Assembly (NCBI RefSeq): GCF_963676685.1
Contig: NC_092352.1
Location: forward strand, 2,542,001 to 2,606,000
Direction: 5' to 3'
DNA length: 64,000 bases
Source of the DNA: Mytilus edulis
Lineage: Eukaryota
Below the pieces are notes generated by a model. It was not told where the DNA came from. It worked only from the letters and a program-made list of their open reading frames with translations, and made no database searches. Within the stretch, counting starts at the first letter, position 1, and each line of letters starts with the position of its first letter. This document shows positions 3,216 through 63,356 of the stretch, piece by piece. The translations under genes were made by a program, and so were the position numbers.

Positions 3216-3530
3216 ATAAAATTGAGAATGAAAATGGGGAATGTGTCAAAAAGACAACAGCCAAACCACAAAACAGACAACAGCAGGAGGTCACCAATAG
3301 GTCTCCAATGCAGCGAGAAACTCCCGCACCCGGAGGCGTCACTAAGCTGGCCTCCTAACACATATATGTACTAGTTCAGTGATAATATACGTCGTACTAA
3401 ACTCCGAATTATACACAAGAACTAAAATCAAAATTCATACAAGACTCAAAGGCCAGAGGCTCCTGACTTGGGACAGGCGCAAAAATGCGGCGGGGTTAAA
3501 CACGTTTTTTGAGATCTTAACCCTCCCTTG
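3216..3530 (-). mobile_element. Family A repeat (3'-end fragment of the Naiad-like element)
   Basis: Reverse complement of 9520-10234 without the family B insert. Other copies at about 6085-6375, 17423-17580, 27864-28012, 38370-38602 and 39862-39995; most keep the ATAAAATTGAGAATGGAAATGGGG end and are variably truncated at the other. Confidence 0.8.
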
Positions 3531-9950: not shown

Positions 9951-10522
9951 TTAACCCCGCCGCATTTTTGCGCCTGTCCCAAGTCAGGAGCCTCTGGCCT
10001 TTGTTAGTCTTGTATTATTTTTATTTTAGTTTCTTGTGTACAATTTGGAAATTAGTATGGCGTTCATTATCACTGAACTAGTATATATTTGTTTAGGGGC
10101 CAGTTGAAGGACGCCTCCGGGTGCGGGAATTTCTCGCTACATTGAAGACCTGTTGGTGACCTTCTGCTGTTGTTTTTTCCTATGGTCGGGTTGTTGTCTC
10201 TTTGGCACATTCCCCATTTCCATTCTCAATTTTATGTCGAAAAACTAAAAAAATAGTTTAGTAACGTATAAAATACATCTGTTTTTATAAAATACTTCCA
10301 GAATACGCCGTTTTGTGTTCGACACACATAATATAAACCTAATGCAAAGACTTGAATATGTATTCAGCTGGATACCGCATGTATAGCTAAAAATATTTTA
10401 AAACTCAAAAAGAAAAGTTAGCGGTTTGATGTTATCGGAAACATAGCCCATAGCAAATCATGGACACAGGATCTATATTTTAATGTATTTTGAAGAAGGG
10501 TATTTTTCTAAAGTATAATAAA

Positions 10523-16014: not shown

Positions 16015-16382
16015 TTGGTTGACCGTTATGGAATAACCGTTTCACAGATGATATGGGATATGTTTCTCACGTCATAACTACAATCCTCTTCCCTTTTCAT
16101 GAATTTGACTTACTGTATAAAGCTAGTTAAATCGGGTTTGTAAAAACATGAGCAACCCGACGGTGCCACTGTTGGACATTTGGAGCAGTATCTGCTTACC
16201 CTTCTGGAGCACCTGAGATCATCCCCAGTTTTTGGTTAGGGTTCGTGTTAATTGCTCAGACTGTGTTTGTTTTCTATGCTGTTTCTTGTGAACTTTAATT
16301 TGTATATTTCATGTCATGGTGTTATCAGTTTATTTTCGATTTATGAGTTTGCCTGTTCCTCTGGTATCTTTCGCCCCTCTTG
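16015..16382 (+). mobile_element. Family C repeat: 3' end of another Naiad-like PLE subfamily
   Basis: Begins with a coding tail LVDRYGITVSQM and contains the structured GCTTACCCTTC(C/T)GGAGCACCTG block also seen at 36012-36105. Other copies at 27135-27352, 29469-29640, 36438-36530, 38620-38732, 40183-40390 and 42148-42310. Confidence 0.75.
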
Positions 16383-26301: not shown

Positions 26302-28361
26302 ACGTATACACATTAATGTACTTCAAATTTTATAGGTGAATACGATATACATTATCACACAATTTTACAAGACCTATTGGCCAATGATTGGAAGTTTCAG
26401 AAAAGAGAGAAATCCCCAAGTTATGCCAAGAGTGTCTATTTCCTGAGTCTGTATATCCACACTTGAGTTTTGGTTTAGTGTGTTGAAAGAAAGTAAAGAT
26501 TAAATACGATCAAAAGTTCAAAACCATCGAAGAATTCAAATGAAATGCAGCTTGGAAACTATTGCATGTTTAAAATCATCATGTATTCTGGTAGTTTGAC
26601 AGCGCAGGTTTAATTGGCCATATCTTATAACATTATCATCTTCATATCAATCATCGTCAAGCGCAAGTATTAAGGCCTGTTGTCATTTTTCAACTTTGTT
26701 TTCTGAAGAAAGCCATTAATTCATTAGTTACATCTTATCTAATACTGACACCGACATTTATCCGCTGTTTGGATATTCAATCAGGGTTCAATGATATATT
26801 CACAGAAAAATAGAACTAATTATAATTTGTAATGTCATTGCTTCTGTAATAACTATGTAATTTGTCTTAAAGAGTACCTGTCACCCCCGGAATATGAAAT
26901 ACAATATAATGTGTTATGAAGTAGAAAAACGATTCTTTTCTTTTTATAAACAGAGTGAATTTGTTTGGGGTAGTTACAAAGTTAAAATGCATACAGAATA
27001 GATCGTAGCAATCACCCCTGAATAAATGAAACTGAATGAAATAACAAGACAATATACAGATATTTTCATACTCCAATTGTAGACTACTTAATTTGATTCC
27101 TGATCGTATGCAAGATGACATCTATATATAATAACATGAGCAACACGACTGGTGCCACATGTGGAGCAGTATCTACATACCCTTCCGGAGCACCTGAGAT
27201 AACCCCCAGTTTTTGGTGGGTTTAGTGTTGCTCGTGTCTTGTCTACTATTATTTGTCTGTTTGTCTTTGTCTTTTTCTTTTTGAGCCATAGCGTTGTCAG
27301 TTTATTTCAAATCTATGAGTTTGACTGTCCCTCTGGTATCTTTCGACTCTCTTCTATAATGTTCATTACTCATAAATAAGAGACTGTAATATTAGTACCA
27401 ACGAGACAACTCTCCATCCAAATCACGATGTATTATATATCAAAGTACAGGCTTCAACACAGAGCGTAAGATCACACCGAAAAACAAGATATAAAGTGTA
27501 AATTATTTTTAAAAACAAGAATCCAAATGTTTGATCTATATTAAAAAAAACACTTGAAACAAGAAAAAAACGTATGAACCACACCAACAATTGCCATTCT
27601 CTGTTTGTGTTGTACATTTATTTTGCTTAAATTGCTCAACATAGATAATCTTTTTTTGCGTCCTAGTAATAGAGTTAAAGTCGTACCATTTGAAAGTGTT
27701 ACAACTGTAATCATTATTTGGTTGACCGTTCTGGACTATCTATGCCACTGACCATAACTATGTTTCAAAAGTCTAAGCCCTTCATCTCCATTTTAATTCT
27801 CGGACCCCCTGAGATCAATCTCGTTTTTCGGTTTGGTTCGTATGGCGAAGTGTTTTATAGACTAATAAAATTGAGAATGGAAATGGGGAATGTGTCAAAG
27901 AGACAACAACCCGACCAAATAAAAAACAACAGCAGAAGGTCACCAACAGGTCTTCAATGTAGCGAGAAATTCCAGCACCCGGAGGCGTCCTTCAGCTGGC
28001 CCCTAAACAAATATAATAATAATGTCTGTTATGGTTGTTCACCTCATTTTATCAATATAACGAAACACTAAACAACTGTTATACAAGTGGGTGGATTTGC
28101 TTTCTATTAAATCAGATTTAGCTAGTTTTTGCTTTGGAAAAGACTTGTACCAAGTTTGGAGTATGACAGTTTTTACTCACTCACACTCCGTTGACTGATA
28201 ACGTTTAAATTATATATGTGTTTATAGATGTTCTCTTTTTGATTTAAATTGGAATTCGGTAAAAAATTTCACACTCAGTCTGATAAAACACTTCAAAGTT
28301 TTGGTTTAAAGAAACTTTATCTTCGTATTTGATTTGACCTTTCAACGGTTTTTAATTTAAA

Positions 28362-29640: not shown

Positions 29641-30069
29641 TTTTCTAGATATTACATCTCCCATGAATAAATTGACTCAATCTGAGTCCAAATAACACAG
29701 AGAACGATTCCTGTGCTTGAACATGCAACCAGTATTACAGATACATCAGTTTCTTTCTCTTCCGCATTCTTCTTAGCGACAGTATATACTATTACTGGTA
29801 TGGGAATAGGGAGACAAATATAGCATTGTAACGATGTAATTCTAACGTATGATACTTCATCATATAAGTTGTCTTCTTTCGCGAGAGGATCGGTCTTTTC
29901 TGTGACAATGTTGTCTCCTTTCGCGAGAGGATCGGTCTTTTCTGTGACACTGTTGTCTTCTTTCGCGAGAGGATCGGTCTTTTCTGTGACAATTTGTGCA
30001 GTTCTTTCCGCCATGTTATGTTGGTCATTATCAAATACTGTCGTGTCAAATGAGGCACTAGAACTTTCT

Positions 30070-31305
30070 GTCGTGTCATGCTGGTTATGAGTAACCGCTG
30101 CCGTGTTATGCTGGTTATCAGTAATCGCTGCTGTGTTATGCTGGCTATCAGTAATCGCTGTCGTGTTATGTTGGTTATCAGGAATCGCTGCCGTGTCATG
30201 TTGGTTATCAGTAATCGCTGTCGTGTCATGCTGGTTATAAGTAATTGCTGACGTGTTATGCTGGTTGTCAGTAATCGCTGCCGTGTTATGCTGGTTACCA
30301 GTAATCGCTGCCGTGTTATGCTGGTTATCAGTAATCGGTGTCGTTTTATGCTGGTTATCAGTAATCGCTGCTGTGTTATGCTGGCTATCAGTAATCGCTG
30401 CTGTGATATGGTGGTTATCGGGAATCGCTGCCGTGTCATGTTGGTTATCAGTAATCGCTGTCGTGTCATGCTGGTTATAAGTAATTGCTGACGTGTTATG
30501 CTGGTTATCAGGAATCGATGCCGTGTCATGTTGGTTATCAGTAATCGCTGCCGTGTTATACTGATTATCAGTAATCGCTGCTGTGTTATGCTGGTTATCA
30601 GTAATCGCTGTCGTGTTATGCTGGTTATCAGGAATCGCTGCCGTGTCATGTTGGTTATAAGTAATCGCTGTCGTGTTATGCTGGTTGTCAGTAATCGCTG
30701 CCGTGTTATGCTGGTTATCAGTAATCGCTGTCGTTTTATGCTGGTTATCAGTAATCGCTGCCGTGTTATGCTGGTTGTCAGTAATCGCTGCCTTGTCATG
30801 TTGGTTATAAATAATCGCTGTCGTGTTATGCTGGTTTTCAGTAATCGCTGCCGTGTTATGCTGGTTATCAGTAATCGCTGTCGTTTTATGCTGGTTATCA
30901 GTAATCGCTGCCGTGTTATGCTGGTTATCAGGAATCGCTGCCGTGTCATGTTGGTTATAAATAATCGCTGCTGTGTTATGCTGGTTATCAGTAATCGCTG
31001 CCGTGTTATGCCGGTTATCAGTAATCGGTGTCGTTTTATGCTGATTATCAGTAATCGCTGCCGTGTTATGCTGGTTATCAGTAATCGCTGTCGTTTTATG
31101 TTGGTTATCAGTAATCGCTGCCGTGTTATTCTGGTTGTCAGTAATCGCTGCCGTGTTATGCTGGTTATCAGTAATCGCTGCCGTGTTATGCTGGTTATCA
31201 GTAATCGCTGCCGTGTTATGCCGGTTATCAGTAATCGGTGTCGTTTTATGCTGGTTATCAGTAATCACTGTCGTTTTATTCTGGTTGTTAGTGATCGCTG
31301 TCGTA
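30070..31305. repeat. Coding minisatellite, about 41 x 30 bp (TDNQHNTAAI), next to 3 x 39 bp (29870-29990, VTEKTDPLAKEDN)
   Basis: GTAATCGCTGCCGTGTTATGCTGGTTATCA in exact 30-bp register. Confidence 0.97.
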
Positions 31306-32139
31306 GTTGTATTACAGCTTTCCAAGACTATTCTATTTTGAGATGCATTAAATGTATCACGAATGCTCCTTCGTTTTTCATCATTGGTTCCAATTTCAAT
31401 CGAGGTTAGATCATCAGTATTCTGACTGTTTTCTGATCTTCGTATTTCTAATGCTAATGCAATGAAAAAATATTGGATACAAGGAAATACAAGATATTGT
31501 GAAAACATTGTTGCAAAGACAGATATTACATTTGCCGCGTCTCTATACATATTGATTAATAACGATATACATCAAGATATGTGTAATCCAGTTTTTAATT
31601 GCGATTTTTTTTTTTATTTACACCTATGTTTATATCATGTAATAGGAAGAACATGTGGTCTAATGTGTAATCAGTGGTTTCCTAGATGGCAAATATTGTG
31701 AACGTGTTTGATAACACGCAGTACACATCTACTATGTTAGTCTTTTTAAAGAAAACAACGCATTTCTAAACAAATAGACCTATATGGAAATTGCTTGAAA
31801 TGATTCCAATATATTTGGAACGGAAATATATTGTAATATATGGCATAAAACATGTTCTCTCGATTTATTACACTTTTGTAATATACAATTTACAATACAC
31901 ATACCTCAAATACTTTTTGAGATTGAATGAATAAAGGCAACATTATTTTACCGATGTATAAGTAAATCGATTAAGCTAAAACAAATCCGGGTAACAAAAT
32001 AAATCCGAGGGAAACACATCAACTATAAGAGAAAAACAAGACTCTCTTGTGGAGAGTTGTCTCATTGGCATTCATACGACATCTTCTTTTTTTATATTGG
32101 CACAGAACATTATTAGAAAAAAATGTTGGTTATTGTAAC

Positions 32140-32842: not shown

Positions 32843-33925
32843 TTACATTTGTATGCTTTTATTACAAATGACATCTTTTTTAAGTATGAAATTTACTTTT
32901 GTTGTTGACAAATTAAAAGCCAACCGATAAACCCATGTACAACATAAGACATTAAATAAACAGAACCAATCTGCAGACATCCACCAAATCTTTTCCTCTG
33001 ATTCCCATCCACTACAAATACGGGATTCATGACCGGAGACAATCTTCTCATAGGAAAATTGAAATTCTTCATAATTCCCCATCCGAAATACTCTTTGAAT
33101 GAAATCTTCTTTTTGTTTGTTAAACTGCGTTTTCGTAAATTCGTTCCCAAAACTAATTTCAGCAGGAATTCGAACTCTCGTGAGTTTATTTCGATTTATA
33201 TTGAGACTTGTAGGATCTGTTGATTTATCTACCCAAGTGTCATATTTAAAATTTTCAGATGCCTGATGATCAATCACAATAACTTTTTCTTTATAGGTAG
33301 ATGAATATGTATAGGAAGATGCATCTGACCTTCCAGCTGATCTTGTAACAGTACGTTCTTCGTAATGGAAACATACGACAGTCATTTTAATGATAGGTTT
33401 AGATTGACGAAGTTCATTCAGATATTTCACGCATGACTCTTTATTATATATATTTTCTAAGTACTGCATCTCCCATGACAATAGAGATTCTGCTTGTGTC
33501 CATATAATACACAATACTATTCCAGTGCTTAAGCAGGTCATAAGTATAACAGATAGATGCTGGCCTTTTCCCTCTAGATTTGTCCTGTAAATCACAGTAT
33601 AAATCAAAGTAGGTATGTATACGAAAAGACATATATAACATTGGAACGACGTTACTCTGGCGTAGGAAACTTCATAAAAATGTTCCTTTTCTTCTTTTTC
33701 GATTGGCGTTCGTTCTGGTACAGTCGAAGTTTCTATACTATTTGTCTTTGTCCTGTCCCGGATTGTATGTAGTTCATCATACGTTCTTCCTAGTCTTTGA
33801 TCAACCGATGATTTCTTTATGCCGTAGATCATTTTCATTATACAATACTGAATTAAAGGCAACACAACATATTGTGCTGTCAGTGTCGTAAAGACAGAGA
33901 TGACAATTGCAACATCTCGATTCAT
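32843..33925 (-). CDS. TMEM151-family membrane protein, intact single-exon ORF (360 aa from ATG 33925)
   Basis: Three N-terminal hydrophobic segments, then KPIIKMTVVCFHYEERT...ENFKYDTWVDKS...TRVRI...WWMS...WVYRL...KK, matching the TMEM151A/B pattern as recalled. The track start at 33940 is TTG; the paralog supports ATG 33925. Confidence 0.8.
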   Translation of the reverse strand: MNRDVAIVISVFTTLTAQYVVLPLIQYCIMKMIYGIKKSSVDQRLGRTYDELHTIRDRTKTNSIETSTVPERTPIEKEEKEHFYEVSYARVTSFQCYICLFVYIPTLIYTVIYRTNLEGKGQHLSVILMTCLSTGIVLCIIWTQAESLLSWEMQYLENIYNKESCVKYLNELRQSKPIIKMTVVCFHYEERTVTRSAGRSDASSYTYSSTYKEKVIVIDHQASENFKYDTWVDKSTDPTSLNINRNKLTRVRIPAEISFGNEFTKTQFNKQKEDFIQRVFRMGNYEEFQFSYEKIVSGHESRICSGWESEEKIWWMSADWFCLFNVLCCTWVYRLAFNLSTTKVNFILKKDVICNKSIQM

Positions 33926-34153
33926 ATTTGCTTTTGACAAGTTTGAAAGACACGACTCAAGTGAACAAATATCAGCTACATGTACTTAGTCAACGGAAGT
34001 ACATTCATATACATACATTTTTTTTGTATGTGTGTAGTTTATTATATCCTGTTTTTACTAGGTGCAATTCAAGTCTAATCATTTTTTTTTATTTGGATAA
34101 CTTACAGAATTTATAATAATCTGTTTTAGATAAGATTACAGGTAGCTTTTTTG

Positions 34154-34398
34154 TAAATATAGACATATTTCCAACATTTATTTTGCATCTGGAAACTAAA
34201 AGGTAAAAAAAACGCAAAATCTGTGAATATTAAATATTTCCCAAAATAGGGCATGGTTTGTGAAATAGCTGTGTTTACCAATGTTTGTCCAAGGGTCAGA
34301 AATACAGAGAGCATTTCTTATAAATATAGACAAATTTCCAACATTTATTTTGCATCTGGAAACTAATAGGTAAAAAAACGCAAAATCTGTGAATATTG
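34154..34398. repeat. Direct duplication of about 78 bp (34154-34231 and 34321-34398)
   Basis: TAAATATAGACA(T/A)ATTTCC...GCAAAATCTGTGAATATT occurs twice; the second copy abuts the PLE 5' junction. Confidence 0.9.
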
Positions 34399-36110
34399 AA
34401 TATCAATTGGAAGCAGAACTTCAAACTACTAATAGATTCTGTTGAGGGTTATGCAAAAGACTGGACAAAAAGAGAAAAGGTTGAGGTTGACACTCTTTCG
34501 GAGTTGGTAAAATCAGTAAGGTCATTGATTCAGATAAGAGTAAGTAAGCTTAAAGGGTCAATGAGAACCAAAGCTCCTTCCATCTTTAAAGACCCTCAGG
34601 TCATAGAGGAGTTGTCTTGCCTCCATGACAAATATGTTGTCGTTCCAGCTGACAAAGCCTCAAACAATATTGTTTTTGTTTGCAAGAAACACTACATTGT
34701 CTGCCTGATTAAGGAACTCGGGATAAATAACACACTTGGAAATCCTACATATACACTAAGTACGCTTACTAAGCAGGAGATCCTGGAAAACCACAAATCG
34801 GTTCTAATCTCCTTTGCTGTTCATCCAAAGGATGAAGACCAAGATCTTTCATCCTTATATTGGATTCCTAAGCTTCACAAGAATCTTTATAAGGAAAGGT
34901 ATATTGCAGGTTCTTCCAAGTGTTCCACTAAACCCCTTTAAAGTGCTTACTGTCATACTCACTGCAGTCAAAGAAGGTTTCAGAAATATTCCGAAACGGC
35001 ATATTCAAGAAGTGGTGTTAATCAGATGTGAATACTGAAAAATTCAAAAGAGTTATTAGGGAATTTACTATTTCAATCATTAAAACATTGTACCAACATT
35101 AAAACCTTTGATTTTTCAACTCTTTATACCACTACTCCACAAACTAAACTTAAAGCTCGACTGAAAGAACTCGTCAGCTTATGTTTCTTTAACAAAAAAG
35201 GCACTAGACGTTTTAAATATCTAGTTGTGGGCAGATATTCAGCTTACTTTGTGAAAAATCATACAGAGTCAAAGAAAACATACACAGAAGAGGATATCAT
35301 TGCCATGCTGGACTTTTTAATTGACAACATATTTGTTGAATTTGAAGGTTTGGTCTTCCAACAGACTATTGGAATCCCAATGGGTACCAATTGAGCTCCT
35401 CTACTTGCAGATTTGTTTTTGTATTCCTATGAAGCAGAATGTATCCAAGGGCTTGTACAGAAAGGAGAAAAAAAATTAGCCCAGTCTTTTAATTTCACCT
35501 TTCGGTATATTGATGATGTACTGTCTCTTAATAATAATAGATTCAGTTATCACTTACATTTAATATATCCAAGTGAACTTGAAATTAAAGATAAATCTGC
35601 TTCATATTTAGACCTTTTCCTCGAAATGACTACTGATGGTAGGTTGAATACCAAAATTTATGACAAACGCGATGATTTTAATTTTCCTATAGTTACCTTT
35701 CCATTTCTGTGTAGCAACATCCCAGCGGCACCAGCATATGGAGTATATGTGTCTCATTTGATACGTTACTCTAGAGCTAGCTCAAAGTACGTTGATTTGT
35801 TGAACGAGGAATACTGCTTTCTCAAAAGTTGCTAAGACAGGGCTATGAATCAATCAAATTAGTCTATATATCTTGTAATGATGTATAATATTCATCCAAG
35901 AAATTTTACTGTCGCCATCATGAGCTGATTGGCCATTATGACATAGATCATATCTGATATTCTTCCTCAGTCACAAAAACCTTCCATCATTACCGAACTG
36001 AACAAAGAAAGAACACGACGGGTACCGTATATACGGTGCAGGAAATGCTTACCCTTCCGGAGCACCTGATTTCACTCCCGGGTTTTAGTGGAGTTCGCGT
36101 TGTTTCTTAT
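34399..36110 (+). pseudogene. Decayed 5'-truncated Penelope-like (Naiad-type) reverse transcriptase with structured 3' end
   Basis: Motifs VVVPADKASNN, LYWIPKLHK, TFDFSTLYT, GIPMGTN*APLLADL, FRYIDDVL, YDKRDDFNF and YGVYVSHLIRY, with frameshifts and stops. No C-terminal GIY-YIG. Confidence 0.88.
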
Positions 36111-36511
36111 TTATTATTTATAACTGTTGATGTAAATGTCCTTTGTTTTTTTTAGTCTTTGTTTACTACTTGGTTTTGATTGTTATTGTCTTGCAACCTC
36201 CCGTATAGTCACCCAATCTATAACTTTGCCGATTGGGACATGTTGCCTTAGTGTGGGTTAGCATAACGATTTAGTTCAGGTCTTGCTCCTGGATTCTTGC
36301 GAATGCATCATGTTATTTTTTTTCTACGTTGTTTGGTTTGTTTCTTTTTCGATTTGAACATTGGTAAACTACTATCGTTTTTATTACTTCATAACTTAAA
36401 AAATCAACGTTTTCATGTGTGTTATATTTGTAAAATAAAGACGAAAGATACTAACGGGATAGTCAAACTCATAAGTCGAAAACAAACTGACAATAACATG
36501 GCAAAAAACGA

Positions 36512-37900
36512 AAAGACAAACAACAGTACATACAACACAGCAGGCAAGACAAACAACAGTACATACAACACAGCAAGCAAGACAAACAACAGTACATACA
36601 ACACAGCAGACAAGACAAACAACAGTACATACAACACAGCAGACAAGACAAACAACAGTACATACAACACAGCAGGCAATACAAACAACAGTACATACAA
36701 CACAGCAGACAAGACAAACAACAGTACATACAACACAGCAGACAAGACAAACAACAGTACATACAACACAGCAGACAAGACAAACAACAGTACATACAAC
36801 ACAGCAGGCAAGACAGACATCAGTACATACAACACAGTAGGCAAGACAGACAACAGTACATACAACACAGCAGGAAAGACAGACAACAGTACATAAAACA
36901 CAGCAGGCAAGACAGCCAACAGTACATACAACACAGCAGGCAAGACAAACAACAGTACATACAACACAGCAGGTAAGACAGACAACAGTGCATACAACAC
37001 AGCAGGCAATACAGACAACAGTACATACAACACAGCAGGCAAGACAGACATCAGTACATACAACACAGTAGGCAAGACAGACAACAGTACATACAGCACA
37101 GCAGGCAAGACAAACAACAGTACATACAACACAGCAGGTAAGACAGACAACAGTACATACAACACAGCAGGCAATACAGACAACAGTACATACAACACAG
37201 CAGGCAAGACAAACAACAGTACATACAACACAGCAGACAAGACAGACAACAGTACATACAACACAGCAGGCAATACAAACAACAGTACATACAACACAGC
37301 AGACAAGACAGACATCAGTACATACAACACAGCAGACAAGACAAACAACAGTACATACAACACAGCAGACAAGACAGACAACAGTACATACAACACAGCA
37401 GGCAATACAAACAACAGTACATACAACACAGCAGGCAAGACAGACATCAGTACATACAACACAGTAGGCAAGACAGACAACAGTACATACAACACAGCAG
37501 GCAAGACAAACAACAGTACATACAACACAGCAGGTAAGACAAACAACAGTACATACAACACAGCAGACAAGACAGACAACAGTACATACAACACAGCAGG
37601 CAATACAAACAACAGTACATACAACACAGCAGGCAAGACAGACATCAGTACATACAACACAGTAGGCAAGACAGACAACAGTACATACAACACAGAAGGC
37701 AAGACAAACAACAGTACATACAACACAGCAGGTAAGACAGACAACAGTACATACAACACAGCAGGCAATACAGACAACAGTACATACAACACAGCAGGCA
37801 AGACAGACATCAGTACATACAACACAGTAGGCAAGACAGAAAACAGTACATACAACACAGCAGGCAAGACAAACAACAGTACATACAACACAGCAGTCAA
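36512..37900. repeat. Minisatellite, about 42 x 33 bp
   Basis: Unit AAGACA(A/G)ACAACAGTACATACAACACAGCAGGC, growing out of a family C fragment at 36438-36530. Confidence 0.97.
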
Positions 37901-40116
37901 GACATTACAGCATGTGCATTCTTCTTAATGTATAGTTATTTTACTTTTTGTTACAAAACTGGAATGCATTAGTGCCTTGAAGGCAATAGAAAGAACACCA
38001 CGAGTGACGTAACGTCCGTCTGGCGTACAAAATTTGAATCCTGGTATCTATATGAGTTTATGTATATGTGTTAGGCTTACGGAGAACGTTAATTCTATTC
38101 TGTGACTAGACAACATGCAATAATGTTAAAATAGAATGTCCGTTTTCCTACAGGAATATGACAGTTGTTTTTCATTTATTCATTCATTCATCGTTTGATC
38201 TGGCCGAGTTTTTGATTTTGTTAGGTTTAAAAACAAATGTTGACTTTCCACTTTTGGAATTAACATTGGAGTTTGGTAATTTTGTTTATACTTTTTTATA
38301 AAGCCAGTCGATTGTTTTTGCTCTTCAACTTAAACCTGAAAATAGCATTTTGATACATACCGGCCTTTGTAAGTCTTGTATGATATTTAATTTTAGTTTC
38401 TTGTGTATAATTCGGAGTTTAGTATGACATCCATTATCACTGTACTAGTATACATATTTTTAAGGGGTCAGCTGAAGGACGCCTACAGGTGCGGGAGTTT
38501 CTCGCTACATCGAAGACCCATTGGTGGCCTTCGGCTGTTGTCTGCTCTATGGTCGGGTTGTTGTCGCTTTGACACATTCCCCATTTCCTATCTCAATTTC
38601 AAATAATAAAACACAGGACAAAACATAGAAAACTAAAGCTGAGCAACACGAACCCCACCAAAATCTGGGGAGATCTCATGTGCTCCAAAAGGGTAAGCAG
38701 ATCCTGCTCAACATGTGGCACCCATCGTGTCATTAAAGGACAGGATGCATTCTAATTAACAGTGTATGCCTTTATATGTTCTAATTGAGTGATTCATTTC
38801 AATATTTTTTTCATTTATTTTTTTTCTATTTTTTTATGTGTTTGATATTTCTGTTTGTTGAGTTTAACGGCATATATTATATACTGGTAGCCAAATTCAT
38901 AAAATATCAGTAATTTCACTGTCCAAAGAATAAACAAGATTGCAACCATTGAAAACAACATAATGAAAAACATGCCGTTTATGTTAACTCTTATATTTGT
39001 TTTCAACGTTGTTCTGGTAAAAAGAGGCGGAAGATACACATGGGAGATTCGAATCCCATAAATCGATGAGAAACTTGCAGTCATGACATCAAATAGAAGA
39101 CGCCAAACAGATGAACATGCTTACAGAACACTACATAAAATGTAAAGACTGGCCAACACGAACTCACTAAGAATAAGGGGTGAGTTCATGCGCTCCATAA
39201 AGATAAAAACGCTCTACTAGTGCCACCCGTCATGTGTGTTTACAAATCGGTAATAAGTCTCAAAAGGTAAATAACACAATTAAAGAAATCAAGATGAGAT
39301 TATTGTAACAATAGAACATAGTAATGCTCGTATGAGTATGCGTATGCGTCCGTAAAACTTTCGAAGGATTATTTGAACTTTATAACCCATTGCTTAATAG
39401 CTTCCTTGTAGGCATCAACCCTCTATCAAGGGAACCATAATTGGAATACAAAATATACTTGATGTTCATGATACTCACCATTATAAGCATGACATATACA
39501 TTTTTTGAAATAAATAGATCATTAGTATACATGTATTCCTTTTTTATACTGTTAGTAAGCACGTATGCAGTTAAATGTAATACATTTTCAACACATCAAT
39601 CTACCAATAGAATATTTGAAAGAGTTACAGTTTCATGTCTATTTATTGTAGTTTATTACAGTTGAATTGAAAATGATACGTGCCTATTTATTGAAGAAGA
39701 ACGAAAAAGAAGAGCCATTGTGCCACCAAACATTAAGATGGTGTTAATAACTTTGAAAGAAAAGACGTTTTGTGTGTATATCTACTTTCACAAAACATTA
39801 AGGAAAGGAAAAAATATGAAGAAAAAAATAAAATTTTGTAGTTTCGTTTAAAACTATTTGTTAAATTGAGAAGGAAATTGGGAACGTGTGAAAGGAACAA
39901 CAGCCCGATCACAGAGCAGACAACAGTCCAATTTGTCTTCAATGCAGGGAGAAATGCAACCGGAGGCATGCTTCAGCTGGCCCCTAAACAAACATGTATA
40001 TTTGTTCCGTGTATGTTTTCCTAGAAAGGATACAAACAAGATCATGAGCAGTACAGACACAATCACTGTGTTAGTACATGTGTTTTACATCTCTACTAAC
40101 TAACTAACTTACATTC

Positions 40117-43100
40117 CCCAAAATAAAAATTGTTTTAATCACTTCTTTACATGTCTTGTTTCAAGTATTTTCTTTAATACAGAAGCGAAATATACCAAAG
40201 GGACATTCTAACTCAAAGTAAAAAATAAAATGACAACGCCATGGCTAAAAAGAAAACGATTATCAGACAAACAGTAGTACACAAATACAACATAAACAAA
40301 CTACAATATAAGCAACACAGACGCCATTAAAACTTGTGGTGATTTCATGTGCTTCGGAAGGGTAAGCAGATCCTGCTCCGTATGTGGCAATAGTCACATA
40401 ACGGTTCATATTACCTGACGCAAACATGTGTCAGTATATCACTTGTATCTATTTTACGCAAACATGTGTCAGTATATCACTTGTATCTATTTTACGCAAA
40501 CATGTGTCAGTATATCACTTGTATCTATTTCACTATTCTATATATAATAAGAAGAAAAGAAAAGTAAACATTTCATAAATGCTGATAAACAGTTACTGAT
40601 TCTCAAAAGACATAATTTTTCATTTTGAACAGCATCACCAGATTTATATATTAGTTCTGGGTTTTTAAGGCACAATCAAATTGCTATCGTTATTTCATCG
40701 GAATCCGAAGAACGTGTGCACCTGAAACAATATTCGGGAAATTCCTAGTGTATTTGGAATAAAATCGGCTAATTTGAAACTAATCACAAAAAATTAAATC
40801 ACAAAAATTATAAACTCCAACGAATATTCAAAACGGAGGTTCCCTAATCAAATAGAAATTCAATAGTTCAAACACATCAAACGAATGGAAAGCAACTGTC
40901 GTATTCTTGATTTGGTACATACAATGCCGTTTGTAGAAAATAATGTTTAAACCTGTTTTTTCCAGCAACCTAAATCTCTCATTCTAATGCAACAACGTTT
41001 GTAACTTTCATTTTGATTGGATAACGTCACTTTCTTACATGGCATCAACTGACAATTGATGCTATGGGACGTACGCGCAAGCGCAGACGGCATATGACAG
41101 ATTTTAAATACATGTTTAAATGTTGTTTTCTGTCAGTTTCATTAGAATGGAGATAACAACATTGTATTTTAAGCTCCGATGTCATCAATTTGGGATATGA
41201 TGGTCGCAAATACCCGTTTACTGTCTCCGCTAACGCGTCGCCAGTAAACTTAATTTGCGACCATCAAATCCCCAATTGATGCCGTCGGAGCTTAAAATAC
41301 AATACAGTTTTCTCCTAATTAGTATGACAGTCGCATAGAATTCCTTTTTATTAACAACAATGTGTGAGCAAGACGGATACAAAAAGTAAAGAGTAAAAGA
41401 AATTTGATACATCAAATATAGAAAGAACAATATTAAAGATGATGATTTCAAGTGTGGTCGTTGTATTGTATTAAATGTGTTCATTCAATGTTAAACTTTG
41501 TACAAAGAAAGCAGTAGTGTATTTTAAAAAGCTGCAACTGTTTGTGTAAAAATAAAAAGCATGAACCATATAATAAAAAAATCTAGAAATGTACGTGCAG
41601 AACACGCACAATGCGCTTCTCAGCATCTTATAAAGTCAGATTAGACTATTGGAACAAAACGAATTAACATTTCATGGGATTTAAACGAGTCTATTGGAAT
41701 AAAATATCCATTTACATATCACAAAGAATGCATACAAATGCAGTCTATATTCTTTTCTACAAACATGTTTGACTATCGAACAACTGCATAATAAACAAAA
41801 CACTGCTGCAGTATGTTTTAGAATTAAATATGTGAATACTGTAAAAGTTGGATAAACTGATTAAGTAAATATAATGATACTTATAATACAATGAATCAGG
41901 CCTTTTCACGAAATCAATTTATTTCAGCCAGACAAATAACATTTTGCAGTTTCGTTTTTAAAATATTAGTGCATTTTTTCCTAAAATGTATACCAACAAG
42001 ATTATGAAACGTTTAAGTACAAACACAATCATGGTGTGAGAACATGTGTTTTACATCGATTCGTAAATAACTACCTTGCAGTCCCCAAAATAATATGTGT
42101 TTTAACCACTCCTTCACATGTCTTGCTTCAAGTATTTTCTTAAATAGAGAAGTGAAATATACAAGAGGGACATTCAAACTCATAGTGAAAATAAAATGAC
42201 AACGTCAAGGCTAAAAAAACCGCATATAAGCAACACAAACGCCATTAAAATTGGGGTGATATCATATGCATTGGAAGGGTAAGCAGATCCTGCTCCATAT
42301 GTGGCACTAGTCATATAACGGGCGATTAAAACTGATGAAATAACTCACACACCTAATTTTACCCAAACACGTGTCAGTATATAAATTGTATGTATCTCAC
42401 TAGTATATGTATTAAAAGTAAAAAAGTAAAAAATATCATGAATGCTGATAACACTGTTTCTCAAAAGAAATAATTGATCATTTTGAATAGCATTACCAGA
42501 TTTATATATCAAATCTGTTTTTTAGGCATAAACAAACTGCTATCGTTTTATCACCGGAATCATAAGAACATGTGCACCTTAAAACAATTCTTAGTGTATT
42601 TTAAATAAAATCGGATGATTTGAAACTAGTCAGAAAAAAAGTAAAATCACAAAAATTACATACTCCAAAGAATATTCAAAACGGAAGTCCCCTATGTAAT
42701 CAAATAGAAATTCAATAGTTCAAACATACAAAACCAATGGGAAACAACTGTCATTTTCTTCATTTGGTATAGAAATTCAGTATGTAGAAAATTATGTTTT
42801 AAACCGGGTTTTCCAACAACCTCAACCTCTCATTTGTATGACAGTCGCATAAAATTCCATTTTATTGACAACAATGTGTGAGCTAGACAAATATAAAAAG
42901 TGAAAAGATTTGGATACAACATATATAGAAAGAACTATTGGTAAAGATATGATAGTGTGGTCGTTGTATTTTATTACATGTGTTCATTACATGTATAACT
43001 TTGTATTGGCAACGAAAGCAGTGATGTTTATTTTTGTTATTAAAAAAGCTGCCACTGCTTGTGTAAAGATACAAAGCATGAACCATATAATAATAAAATC

Positions 43101-60500: not shown

Positions 60501-60631
60501 GTTTTATGAACCCGAGTGTATTTAAATACGGTGGACTCGAATTGAAATTATCGATAAGGGCGTTGACCATTCGCATGTACACACGTAGTTTTTGTTAGTT
60601 AAACCTGTATTGCCGTAGACTTACGTTGACA

Positions 60632-61381
60632 ATGTCCGATATGGAGGAGGAAATCTTGGATTTACCGAGTGAACAAGGTACGTCTACTAGAAATCCGCAT
60701 GAAATGTCTAATGCAGACTTATTTTCACTTCTCAAGACGTATATGGATACTAGACTGTCGGGTATTGAAACATCTTTCACAGATACTACGCATACTTTGG
60801 AGAAAAAGGTTAAAAAGGCTGAAAATTCGTTCAAATTCAAGGGTCATCAGGTCCAGTACGAGCTGAACGTAGATTTACAGGATTTGGTACAGAGGGCGTT
60901 GGATTATCTAGGGAGAAACAAGTCGGATAAAGCGGTAACTATTCTGAATGAGGCTCTTAACACGCTAAAGAAAAGAAACAAGCTCATAAGAATTGCTGAC
61001 AAGTCGGAGGGAGGGTGGAAGACCGTACAAGAATATTTGTCCGATGATTTAGCCAGCGACTCCGAGGATGAAAAGAAGATAAGGGCAGCTGATACCCGGG
61101 CGGTGAAAAAGTTAAAGTCCGTTAAATCTGCAGACAAGAAGCAGAACGTTCGAAAAAGACCAGCCGAAGCATCCGGTTCTACATCGCAGACAGCGCATAA
61201 CGCAATTCCAGTTTCTGTCAGCATGCCGCCCTTTCGCGGGAGCAGACCTGGTTACGGAAACCAGGTCAAAAGGTCCAGGGAAGGAGATATGTGTTTCAGG
61301 TGTGGATTATTTGGACATTGGGCATCCGATTGCAAAAAAGACACCAAGACTGGATTTGGAGCTCCCAGAGGAAATTCATAA
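60632..61381 (+). CDS. Gag-like ORF1 with CCHC zinc knuckle
   Basis: KRNKLIRIADKSEGGWKTVQEYLSDDLASDSEDEKKI block and CFRCGLFGHWASDC. First ATG is at 60632. Confidence 0.88.
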   Translation: MSDMEEEILDLPSEQGTSTRNPHEMSNADLFSLLKTYMDTRLSGIETSFTDTTHTLEKKVKKAENSFKFKGHQVQYELNVDLQDLVQRALDYLGRNKSDKAVTILNEALNTLKKRNKLIRIADKSEGGWKTVQEYLSDDLASDSEDEKKIRAADTRAVKKLKSVKSADKKQNVRKRPAEASGSTSQTAHNAIPVSVSMPPFRGSRPGYGNQVKRSREGDMCFRCGLFGHWASDCKKDTKTGFGAPRGNS

Positions 61382-63356
61382 GGATTTCAGCGCTCATACG
61401 GACACTTTACAGGTACAAGATGTTTATGAAACTTATTTTGAATATGAAAAGGGTCGTTCAGATATTTTTGTTAAAGACAGGCTTAAAAATTCTGTAAACT
61501 TTTGGAAAAGTATTAACGCTTCTAGTTTTATTGTTGATATTATTGAAAATGGTTACAAAATACCTTTGTTAAAAGAGCCCGAAAATATGTTTTCTAAAAA
61601 TAATAAATCTGCGTTAGAGCATTCAGATTTTGTTTCAAGTGCAATTAAAGAGCTTGTGTCGGGCGGTTTAGTAAAACGTGTATCAATTATGCCACACGTT
61701 GTGAACCCTTTAACTGTTTCAGTTAACGGTAAAGGTAAACACAGATTGATTTTAGATTTAAGACATGTAAATAAACAAGTGATTGTAAACAAAGTCAAAT
61801 TCGAAGATTGGAAAACTTTAGCACAATATGTTACTTTGAATTGTTATGGATATGTCTTTGATTTGAAGTCGGGATATCACCACTTAAACATTTTTGAACA
61901 ACATCAAAAGTATTTAGGGTTTTCGTGGGAAGGAGAATTTTATGTTTTTACTGTGTTGCCATTTGGTTTAAGTTCAAGCGGGTATATATTTACTAAAACT
62001 GTGAGACAATTGGTAAAGCACTGGCGTAAATCTAGCATAAAGGTAGCTGTTTATTTAGACGACGGTTTTGGGGTCGAAGTTAGTTATGAACTATGTGAAA
62101 AGCACGCTCGAAGAATCAAAGCAGACTTGATTGCTTCTGGTTTTGTGCCAAACAAAGACAAGTGTGTATGGTTACCTGCACAGCACGTTGAGTGGTTAGG
62201 TTTTTCATGGAATTTAATTTCTTGCAAATTGCAAATTCCTCAAAGAAAAATAGATGATATATTGAATTTGGTAGCTTTTATACTAAATTCTAGTTACAGG
62301 GTAAAGGTACGACAGTTGGCCAAAATATGTGGTAAGTTAATTGCTTTAACACCAGCAGTAGGTAATGTTACCCAGATAATGACGAGAAACATTTTTTCAG
62401 TCATTAATATAAGAGACTATTGGGATCAATATGTAAACATCGGCAAGTATCCAGGTTGTATCAATGAGCTTATTTTCTGGAGAGATAATTTGCCTTTATT
62501 AAAGGCGGTTGATCTGGTAAAGAACATTTCAAATTTTCATGTTTTCACAGATGCTAGCGATACGGGTGCTGCTGGTTTCATACAAAATTCAACAAACATT
62601 TTGCACAAAATGTGGTTAGAAACTGAGCGAGGTAGGAGTTCTACTTGGCGAGAAGTAAAAGCAATTCAGTTATGTGTCAGTGCCTTTTCAAAACTCTTAC
62701 AAAATAGTATCGTGACTTTTCACACAGATAACAAGAATGCTGTTAGCATCATAAATAAAGGTAGCAAAGTACAAGAATTACAACAGTTGTCCTTAGAAAT
62801 TTATAGGTGTTGTTTACTTGAAAACATTACATTACACATTATATGGTTACCCAGAAAAGAGAACGAGCAGGCTGATTTTTTAAGTCGGATTATAGATATT
62901 GATGACTGGGGTATTTCTCCAGAGTACTTTCAGTTTTTAGACGACCTCTGGGGTCCTCATACCTTTGATAGGTTTGCTAATATGGACAATAACAAAGTAG
63001 ATAAATTTAGTTCGTTGTACTGGAACCCTGGTTCCTCGGCAGTAGACGCTTTCTCGTGCCACTGGGCACAAGAAAACAATCTATTAGTACCACCTGTGTC
63101 TTTAGTTTGTAAGTGCATAAACCACTTGGTTAAATGCAAAGCAGAAGGAACACTGATAGTTCCGAGTTGGCCGTCGTCTCCTTACTGGCCATTAATTTTT
63201 GATGAAAACACAGAACACAGATCTTACGTGTTAGATGTGCTCGAATTTAACGAGGTAGACAGAATTTTAGTTTCTGGAAACAATTTAAATTCTATTTTCG
63301 CGAACGGAAAATTCAAAGGTAGAATTTTAGCTGTTCGATTGAAAGCTTCTGATTGA
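61302..63356 (+). CDS. Reverse transcriptase - RNase H - DAM-like methyltransferase ORF
   Basis: RT: RLILDLR, FDLKSGYHH, VLPFGL, YLDDG. RNase H: FTDAS, SSTWRE, TDN, ENEQADFLSR. MT-like: DRFA...AVDAF...W...VPP...VPSWPSSPYWP. The true start is uncertain. Confidence 0.92.
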   Translation: MDYLDIGHPIAKKTPRLDLELPEEIHKDFSAHTDTLQVQDVYETYFEYEKGRSDIFVKDRLKNSVNFWKSINASSFIVDIIENGYKIPLLKEPENMFSKNNKSALEHSDFVSSAIKELVSGGLVKRVSIMPHVVNPLTVSVNGKGKHRLILDLRHVNKQVIVNKVKFEDWKTLAQYVTLNCYGYVFDLKSGYHHLNIFEQHQKYLGFSWEGEFYVFTVLPFGLSSSGYIFTKTVRQLVKHWRKSSIKVAVYLDDGFGVEVSYELCEKHARRIKADLIASGFVPNKDKCVWLPAQHVEWLGFSWNLISCKLQIPQRKIDDILNLVAFILNSSYRVKVRQLAKICGKLIALTPAVGNVTQIMTRNIFSVINIRDYWDQYVNIGKYPGCINELIFWRDNLPLLKAVDLVKNISNFHVFTDASDTGAAGFIQNSTNILHKMWLETERGRSSTWREVKAIQLCVSAFSKLLQNSIVTFHTDNKNAVSIINKGSKVQELQQLSLEIYRCCLLENITLHIIWLPRKENEQADFLSRIIDIDDWGISPEYFQFLDDLWGPHTFDRFANMDNNKVDKFSSLYWNPGSSAVDAFSCHWAQENNLLVPPVSLVCKCINHLVKCKAEGTLIVPSWPSSPYWPLIFDENTEHRSYVLDVLEFNEVDRILVSGNNLNSIFANGKFKGRILAVRLKASD

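Follow-up and report, generated by a model that had tools for sequence, protein, structure and literature searches.

A pseudoknotted RNA fold with two palindromes at the 3' ends of Naiad retrotransposons: a candidate dimer-dependent ribozyme

The closest described counterparts of the RNA motif analyzed here are the type I hammerheads of Penelope-like elements (PLEs), which have a palindromic helix III and are cut as dimers (PMC4209133). According to the sections of that work considered here, they lie in the pLTRs of their elements, carry a short palindrome that makes a poor hairpin but a strong duplex between copies, and occur as tens of thousands of lone truncated copies. Naiads, which are PLEs with an N-terminal GIY-YIG domain, CxC and DKA motifs and pLTR tandems, have been reported to be without a canonical hammerhead (Craig et al. 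2021, PMC8557442). In the portions of that paper considered here a SECIS is the only conserved Naiad 3' RNA fold described, and the motif goes unremarked in 12 of the 54 published consensi. We have analyzed a window of 64,000 nucleotides from Mytilus edulis (contig NC_092352.1, positions 2,542,001 to 2,606,000; all positions below are those of the window). It contains a motif that shares the pLTR position, the short palindrome weak as a hairpin and strong between copies, and the lone truncated copies with the PLE hammerheads. The motif differs from them in having no hammerhead core, two palindromes in place of one and a pseudoknot.

The features of the locus are collected in Table 1. The decayed reverse transcriptase (RT) frame at 36 kb is the remnant of a Naiad Penelope-like retrotransposon, as its translation retains the DKA and RT motifs among stops and frameshifts. 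The motif begins 28 nt 3' of the stop position of this frame, in the 3' UTR or pLTR. The copy in the window is decayed: an A at position 36024 (G36024A) disrupts one P2 pair, further substitutions are found in P1 and P2, and its folding z-score is -1.49, compared with -3.42 for an intact relative. The motif had been read as shared between this 3' end and a repeat family C. The sharing holds, but family C is no outsider; it is a sister Naiad family with an RT C-terminus upstream of its copies, so that there too the motif lies in the 3' UTR. The near-intact family C element L533 has all of the hallmarks published for Naiads (N-terminal GIY-YIG, CxC, DKA and C-terminal RT). Partial head-to-tail tandems are also present: at 24 of the 30 loci that hold a family C element start (seven of the 30 belong to two arrays) a partial copy abuts the start, and at 20 of the 30 the upstream pLTR contains the entire motif. 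The family C unit is 3.37 kb long and arrays have a period of about 3,370 nt; young elements at L587-L590 and L606-L608 are arrayed head to tail with this period. The distance from the motif to the fixed end of the insertion is about 220 nt in family C and about 170 nt in family A, and many of the family C-like copies in 1.2 Mb are shorter than this and are without the motif.

The core word has four matches within the window and none in 100 shuffles of it. Scanning 1.054 Mb with a covariance model gives 30 cores, six in the window and 24 in evenly spaced stretches totalling 990 kb, which extrapolates to about 33,000 motif copies in the whole 1.37-Gb genome. The neighbourhood contains several unrelated features. 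One open frame of 380 aa (32843-33985, minus strand), which matches TMEM151 (E 3.9e-13), stands head to head with the Naiad remnant. Long tandem arrays with units of 33 nt and 30 nt occupy 36380-38000 and 29890-31500, respectively, and frames of an LTR-type retroelement (zinc knuckle, RT, RNase H) lie at 60599-63356 on the plus strand.

Table 1. Features of the Naiad remnant and of further motif copies in the window.
Feature	Position	Strand	Basis or remark
Naiad RT ORF, family A, 5'-truncated, decayed	34393..35976	+	DKA and RT motifs translated; relatives end ...DILPQS*
Family A stop codon position	35974-76	+	relatives ending ...DILPQS*
P1 5' strand, outer stem, sequence variable	36005..36018	+	14 bp long in L199, an intact copy of family A; formed by unrelated sequences in other families
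P2 5' strand, CGGGUG in intact copies, G36024A here	36019..36024	+	CGGGUG in 12/12 published consensi
Palindrome 1, predicted intermolecular helix	36025..36036	+	covariation; trans duplex energies
Invariant CAG	36039..36041	+	alignment; pattern-imposed in metagenome set
Pseudoknot 5' strand	36042..36046	+	double-sided changes in 5/5 pairs
Conserved GCUYACYC, candidate catalytic strand (putative role)	36047..36054	+	alternative pairing with GGGUG possible
Palindrome 2, 6-8 nt, sequence variable, predicted intermolecular helix	36056..36061	+	sequence comparison and duplex energies
P2 3' strand, CACCYG	36063..36068	+	no variation in 5/6 pairs
Pseudoknot 3' strand, junction between P2 and last hairpin	36069..36073	+	covariation; strand-partner matching
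Last hairpin (P5), length and sequence variable	36074..36094	+	closed hairpin in 10/20 representatives when searching P1 alone
P1 3' strand	36095..36108	+	pairing in intact copies
Rest of family A 3' UTR, to fixed 3' end of insertion	36109..36193	+	end common to family A loci
Motif core, truncated family C copy	27137..27201	+	44.4 bits
Motif core, older family C-like copy	16149..16220	+	41.4 bits
Motif core, family C-like copy	38672..38736	-	45.9 bits
Motif core, decayed copy	40341..40405	-	33.7 bits
Motif core, decayed copy	42258..42322	-	40.2 bits

In the overall layout P2 and a last hairpin, P5, emerge from a junction that is closed off by the variable P1. Enclosed by P2 are, in order, palindrome 1 (12 nt in the window copy through a TA insertion, where the family has 10 nt), the trinucleotide CAG, a variable stretch of five nucleotides, the conserved GCUYACYC and palindrome 2. 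The variable stretch forms a 5-bp pseudoknot with the five nucleotides that directly follow P2; this pseudoknot was absent from the structure drawn in the sequence-only reading of this DNA. That structure is partly wrong. Its outer stem (36012-18/36095-101) is correct and extends to 14 bp in intact family copies, and its final stem is as described, ACTCC/GGAGT here and ACCCC/GGGGT in family C. The CGGGUG/CACCUG stem exists but has 6 bp rather than 7. A proposed GCA..UGC hairpin must be abandoned: its pairs hold in 85% of cells, the 20 rows contain no compensatory change in it, and its outer pair takes a pseudoknot base. The supposedly invariant TTACCCTTCCGGAG is not invariant either, since its last part is the second palindrome, which differs between families; the copy at 27143 also differs.

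Covariation was measured in an alignment of 20 representatives with differing flanks, chosen because most of the metagenome loci come from one assembly; 101 of the 121 listed metagenome loci were left out, being near-duplicates from the families already represented or, in the case of L091, a bacterial chance match without palindromes. All 121 entered the counts of the chance control below. Double-sided changes occur in 5 of 5 pairs of palindrome 1, with 99% of cells paired, and likewise in 5 of 5 pairs of the pseudoknot; pairing is retained although palindrome 1 occurs in 18 different versions and the pseudoknot in 16. The number of cells with double-sided changes (75) was reached in none of 500 shuffles (mean 18.8), and controls in which the pairing was slid gave 3-12 such cells. 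The number of pairs with double-sided changes was 10, compared with 7.5 after shuffling (reached in 15 of 500). When the distinct pseudoknot strands are matched, 12 of 16 pair perfectly with their own partner and 13 of 240 combinations do so with the partner of another family.

The shuffle ignores relatedness and an independent control was therefore added, consisting of chance matches to the same core. Both palindrome 1 and the pseudoknot have four or more of their five pairs in 102 of the 122 metagenome matches listed. The same holds for 1 of 36 matches in prokaryotes and for 3 of 121 in viruses, and the three viral ones all fail at one or both palindromes. A perfect palindrome 1 occurs in 79 of the 122 metagenome matches listed and in a single match each among the 36 from prokaryotes and the 121 from viruses; the pseudoknot has at least four of five pairs in 110 of the 122 listed, 2 of 36 and 9 of 121, respectively. 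A perfect 6-mer of palindrome 2 is present in 84 of the 122 metagenome matches listed and by chance in 13 of 36 prokaryote and 13 of 121 viral matches. The viral collection gave no match to the strict pattern, and the 121 to the loose pattern are chance-like. So are 35 of the 36 matches in prokaryote genomes; the remaining one (L384, RAYO01000111.1), alone among them in passing every test, lies on a contig of 407 nt in a bacterial assembly that also has the end of a Naiad RT. This contig is probably a contaminant, since it matches the 3' end of a pearl-oyster Naiad. The claim of a selected RNA structure is thus borne out by covariation far above what the two families first compared could yield: the structure is real, selected and larger than was drawn.

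Other parts of the fold do not vary in this way. P2 has no covariation support because 5 of its 6 pairs never vary, and since P2 and the core letters were fixed by the search pattern in the metagenome set, their invariance rests on the 12 published consensi. In an alternative fold GGGUG pairs with YACYC, next to a 3-bp RRC/GCU stem; it is 97% paired and shows one-sided changes only, and in 14 of 14 loci P2 is the more stable of the two. The core fold therefore has two candidates, as P2 is without double-sided variation and GGGUG also pairs with YACYC. A further helix, GRR/CYC, was rejected (83% paired, zero double changes). Folding z-scores of the single sense strand are mixed (-0.79 to -3.65), as is expected of calculations in which the pseudoknot and the dimer are ignored.

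The palindromes point to an RNA dimer, for they vary and yet remain self-complementary through the centre, with G-U pairs tolerated. The central four letters of palindrome 1 are self-complementary in 19 of 20 representatives despite letter changes; a hairpin loop requires no symmetry through its centre. The palindrome of the sequence-only reading is present, here and as CCACATGTGG at 27155, but as a hairpin in cis it is marginal (-2.6 to +2.0 kcal/mol over 14 of 14 loci), whereas a trans duplex of two copies gives -8.8 to -19.8 kcal/mol. The dimer energy is below twice that of the monomer in 14 of 14 loci. G-U pairs are present in palindromes of published Naiad consensi, and since such a pair is a mismatch in DNA or on the other strand, the pairing would be made by the sense RNA rather than by DNA. 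A transcript that runs from pLTR to pLTR would contain two copies, because at 20 of the 30 family C start loci the upstream pLTR holds the entire motif. A palindromic element suited to dimers is a trait of PLE hammerheads that is found in the motif as well, a likeness in this feature only. Locus L210 has two motif copies at a distance of 425 nt; their pseudoknot strands differ, but within each copy they match.

The fold was compared with the known self-cleaving classes and with SECIS. At the Rfam gathering score there is no match in the window, and over the motif there is none at E values up to 10 in 16 loci and the window. This result is weakened as evidence because Rfam also misses the twister-like Naiad cores discussed below. 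The hammerhead, defined by CUGANGA and GAAA at a three-way junction, was rejected, with no CUGANGA in the family A or C 3' UTR and no Rfam match, and so was twister-sister, a class with a conserved internal loop but without a pseudoknot, again with no Rfam match. The hallmark of HDV-like ribozymes is a nested double pseudoknot with P3/L3 and a J4/2 strand that carries the catalytic C; the motif has no strand between the P2 3' strand and the pseudoknot strand, and no HDV-like Rfam match. The architecture of hatchet, compared by description only (four stems, conserved P2/P3 bulges), differs, and Rfam gives no match to it. SECIS, known by a quartet stem (AUGA/GA) and an apical AA, was rejected too: SECIS_1 gives no match on the motif, although it gives 27-32 bits in family B UTRs. 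Twister, as presented in the parts of PMC5408937 and PMC6154101 considered here, is like the motif pseudoknotted with a conserved Y-A step. The cleavage step of twister adjoins P1. The motif differs from this class in having one covarying pseudoknot rather than two from terminal loop L4, no CCAAG loop in L4 and another junction order. Pistol (PMC6154101, in part) likewise has one pseudoknot strand within the junction between two stems. The motif has a knot of 5 bp rather than 6, its helices abut without unpaired bases opposite, where pistol has its G-U cleavage junction between P2 and P3, and it would require its palindromes. By these sequence comparisons the fold appears to match no family tested.

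The 3' slot of other Naiads was examined in the supplement of Craig et al. 2021, where 53 consensi were covered over their final 420-490 nucleotides and the last record through a single passage. By eye, these 54 ends comprise 12 with the motif, 22 with hammerhead-like cores, 7 with twister-like cores and 13 with no kind assigned, so that ribozyme-like cores fill the same slot in 29 of the other 42. Clytia has all three kinds. What we take to be hammerhead-like or twister-like was recognized by eye, partly through the general consensus letters of these classes. In the Mytilus genome itself, the 3' UTRs of families A and C are without a twister or hammerhead core, and those of a third Naiad family, B, have a twister-like core and no motif. 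In the twister-like cores a loop triplet covaries with a triplet at GAG (CCC/GGG, ACC/GGU, CAC/GUG) and variable palindromes take the place of P1. They thus share with the motif the 3' UTR slot in one genome and the variable palindromes, and Rfam misses them. The family B cores with palindromes are seen at 9951-10003 (plus strand) and 3447-3499 (minus strand) of the window and at L352-L371 and L544-L548, with a SECIS-like hairpin upstream that scores 27-32 bits (cut-off 35). The twister-like loop has 61 matches in the window plus 1.2 Mb, in several families with different palindromes. Halves of the hammerhead core, permuted (GAAA before CUGANGA) or long-stemmed, can be seen within the examined ends of many Naiads published as hammerhead-free. 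A conserved signal at the start of the element, CTGCTGGTGG, is common to motif-bearing and twister-like Naiads, and its core, GCTGGTGG, is also found in hammerhead-like Acropora Naiads.

The 12 motif-bearing ends are two from Clytia, five from bivalves, four from hemichordates and one probably from toadfish, an assignment based on the place of the record at the end of the file. By sequence comparison of these partial consensi the motif is accordingly found in three phyla (cnidarians, molluscs, hemichordates) and probably in a fourth (fish). The metagenome search, in which the pattern fixed core letters only, gave at least 121 loci, and at 39 of those listed a Naiad RT match lies within the available flank. 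At L097/L192, L112, L137 and L140 the motif is intact, and the 700 nt preceding it give no match to a Naiad RT; L112 starts directly after a microsatellite, and an extra enclosing stem is common to L112 and L140. A frame for ubiquitin C-terminal hydrolase (UCH, E 4.4e-9) ends about 130 nt before the motif at L193:3-146. Clytia Naiads of both the motif kind and the twister-like kind have a further conserved element upstream, GC-rich and with a CCGAACCGGG core, as seen at L206 and in Clytia consensi 1, 2 and 4. No tRNA heads were found in 10 metagenome loci. Sequence look-ups found no earlier record of the motif, and a literature search, with subscription journals mostly outside its scope, found no description of the fold.

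We lean towards the reading that the motif is a candidate dimer-dependent self-cleaving ribozyme of a new class, which would process the pLTR-to-pLTR transcript. The wider proposition stands about evenly balanced: a new natural class whose obligate dimer would form through two palindromic helices, swapped freely with dimer-adapted twister and hammerhead ribozymes, and which may serve elements beyond Naiads. The ribozyme reading is favoured because hammerhead-like and twister-like cores occupy the same slot in other Naiads. One recorded exception counts against it: in the supplement sections considered, the motif-bearing Naiad-1_Chem is flagged 'HHR_core' somewhere in its sequence (PMC8557442). 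Three ribozyme classes were discovered through the same genomic-context argument (PMC6765202, PMC10085705), and some structured RNAs from ribozyme contexts failed to cleave (PMC6765202), as far as the portions considered of these papers report. As a first guess, the cut might fall at the Y-A step of GCUYA (36050-51).

By analogy with PLE hammerheads and retrozymes, a scheme of pairing, cutting, ligation and reverse transcription may be drawn. The transcript from the upstream pLTR to the 3' pLTR would carry two motif copies, which would pair through both palindromes; pairing would activate them and both would cut. Unit-length RNA (3.37 kb in family C) would be freed, and a host ligase could circularise it. 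RT, beginning at a fixed position about 220 nt beyond the 3' side of the motif, would then run through more than one unit. Cleavage would be largely absent from a motif that has no partner, be it in the circle or in a transcript of the host. If RT copies more than one unit from a fixed site, as proposed, fixed 3' ends, random 5' ends and tandem arrays would follow. These features, all of them observed (the arrays with a period of 3,370 nt), would also result if long tandem transcripts were copied without cutting.

Evidence of activity was sought in four raw RNA runs from two studies, chosen by species label and with the library strand assumed, and in the ends of genomic insertions. Reads of both strands span the motif in the four runs, most of them from host RNAs that carry it as a passenger, and none of the runs has a pile-up of read ends inside the motif. 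The minus/plus ratio of first mates, read with the assumed library strand, is minimal at the bin of the motif start in 4 of 4 runs (0.53-0.78); it is 1.2-2.3 over the ORF end, about 1 behind the motif and 0.75-0.89 in one later bin. This dip is weak support for cleavage; RT stalling at a stable fold gives a similar dip. In 1.2 Mb of genome, 64 family C-like copies have scattered 5' ends with no shared base, and no common base emerged either from the 5' ends of the 16 pLTRs that could be measured. A twister-like control family of 47 copies has no 5'-end hot spot either, and an active lizard PLE hammerhead required protein for cleavage and left no read ends, in the sections considered of PMC11167929. 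The end-based tests accordingly have little power.

The sequence-only reading had offered an RT-binding or priming element and an undescribed ribozyme as functions, and on the sequence evidence the latter is likely the better of the two. A signal that sets the start of cDNA would agree with the fixed 3' ends a short distance downstream in families A and C and with the initiation of PLE RT at internal sites (PMC11167929, in part). We nevertheless hold it improbable, since the motif-to-end distance is unequal in the two families, many copies are too short to reach the motif, and a different conserved start signal is common to all three Naiad kinds. A non-catalytic dimerisation or protein-loading element, in which the palindromes would join pLTR copies or RNAs for an RT template jump and the core would bind Naiad protein, is a more substantial rival, to which we give a minor but appreciable probability. 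The dimer features are the best-supported part of the motif, no cleavage signature was found in genomic ends or RNA reads, and, according to the parts of PMC11167929 considered, the lizard PLE protein is a predicted dimer whose hammerhead is dispensable for insertion in vitro. Against such an element, other Naiads are without the motif and have ribozyme-like cores in its place. Moreover, the motif combines multistem junctions and a pseudoknot with some 20 positions that are fixed from phylum to phylum. Such traits mark riboswitch- and ribozyme-like RNAs in the sections considered of PMC5737381, and would be unneeded for simple pairing.

A known ribozyme, pistol- or HDV-like for example, could also have been so heavily rearranged that it is apparent solely in the dimer. 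Non-circular permutations exist among hammerheads (PMC10085705, in part), the pseudoknot strand in the junction between two helices is pistol-like, and Rfam overlooks even the twister-like Naiad cores. The absence from the motif of a CUGANGA core, of a CCAAG loop and of a pistol-type 2-nt junction beside the pseudoknot, together with a pseudoknot that is foreign to twister-sister, makes the chances of this explanation slim. Families A and C are related, with cores 83% identical, and the resemblance of their motifs might simply reflect the shared ancestry of young repeats with no selection on structure. Their flanks have only 50-61% aligned identity, pairing is kept across the many strings of both variable helices, and the same fold is found in several phyla; contradicted by the covariation and the chance controls alike, this last account is scarcely credible.

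To our knowledge, the natural self-cleaving ribozymes so far described fall into only about ten classes. New classes came from the same argument as is made here, a conserved fold in a slot otherwise held by known ribozymes. A PLE with a paired ribozyme is a known kind of system; the RNA fold itself, a candidate about 100 nt long, matches no family tested. If it proves to be a ribozyme, the view of Naiads as multiplying without ribozymes would be overturned, as would the view of hammerheads as possibly mere parasites of PLEs, and dimer-gated cutting would have evolved three times within one element family. The dimer gate would also explain how the host tolerates the extrapolated 33,000 or so copies, many of them transcribed as passengers.
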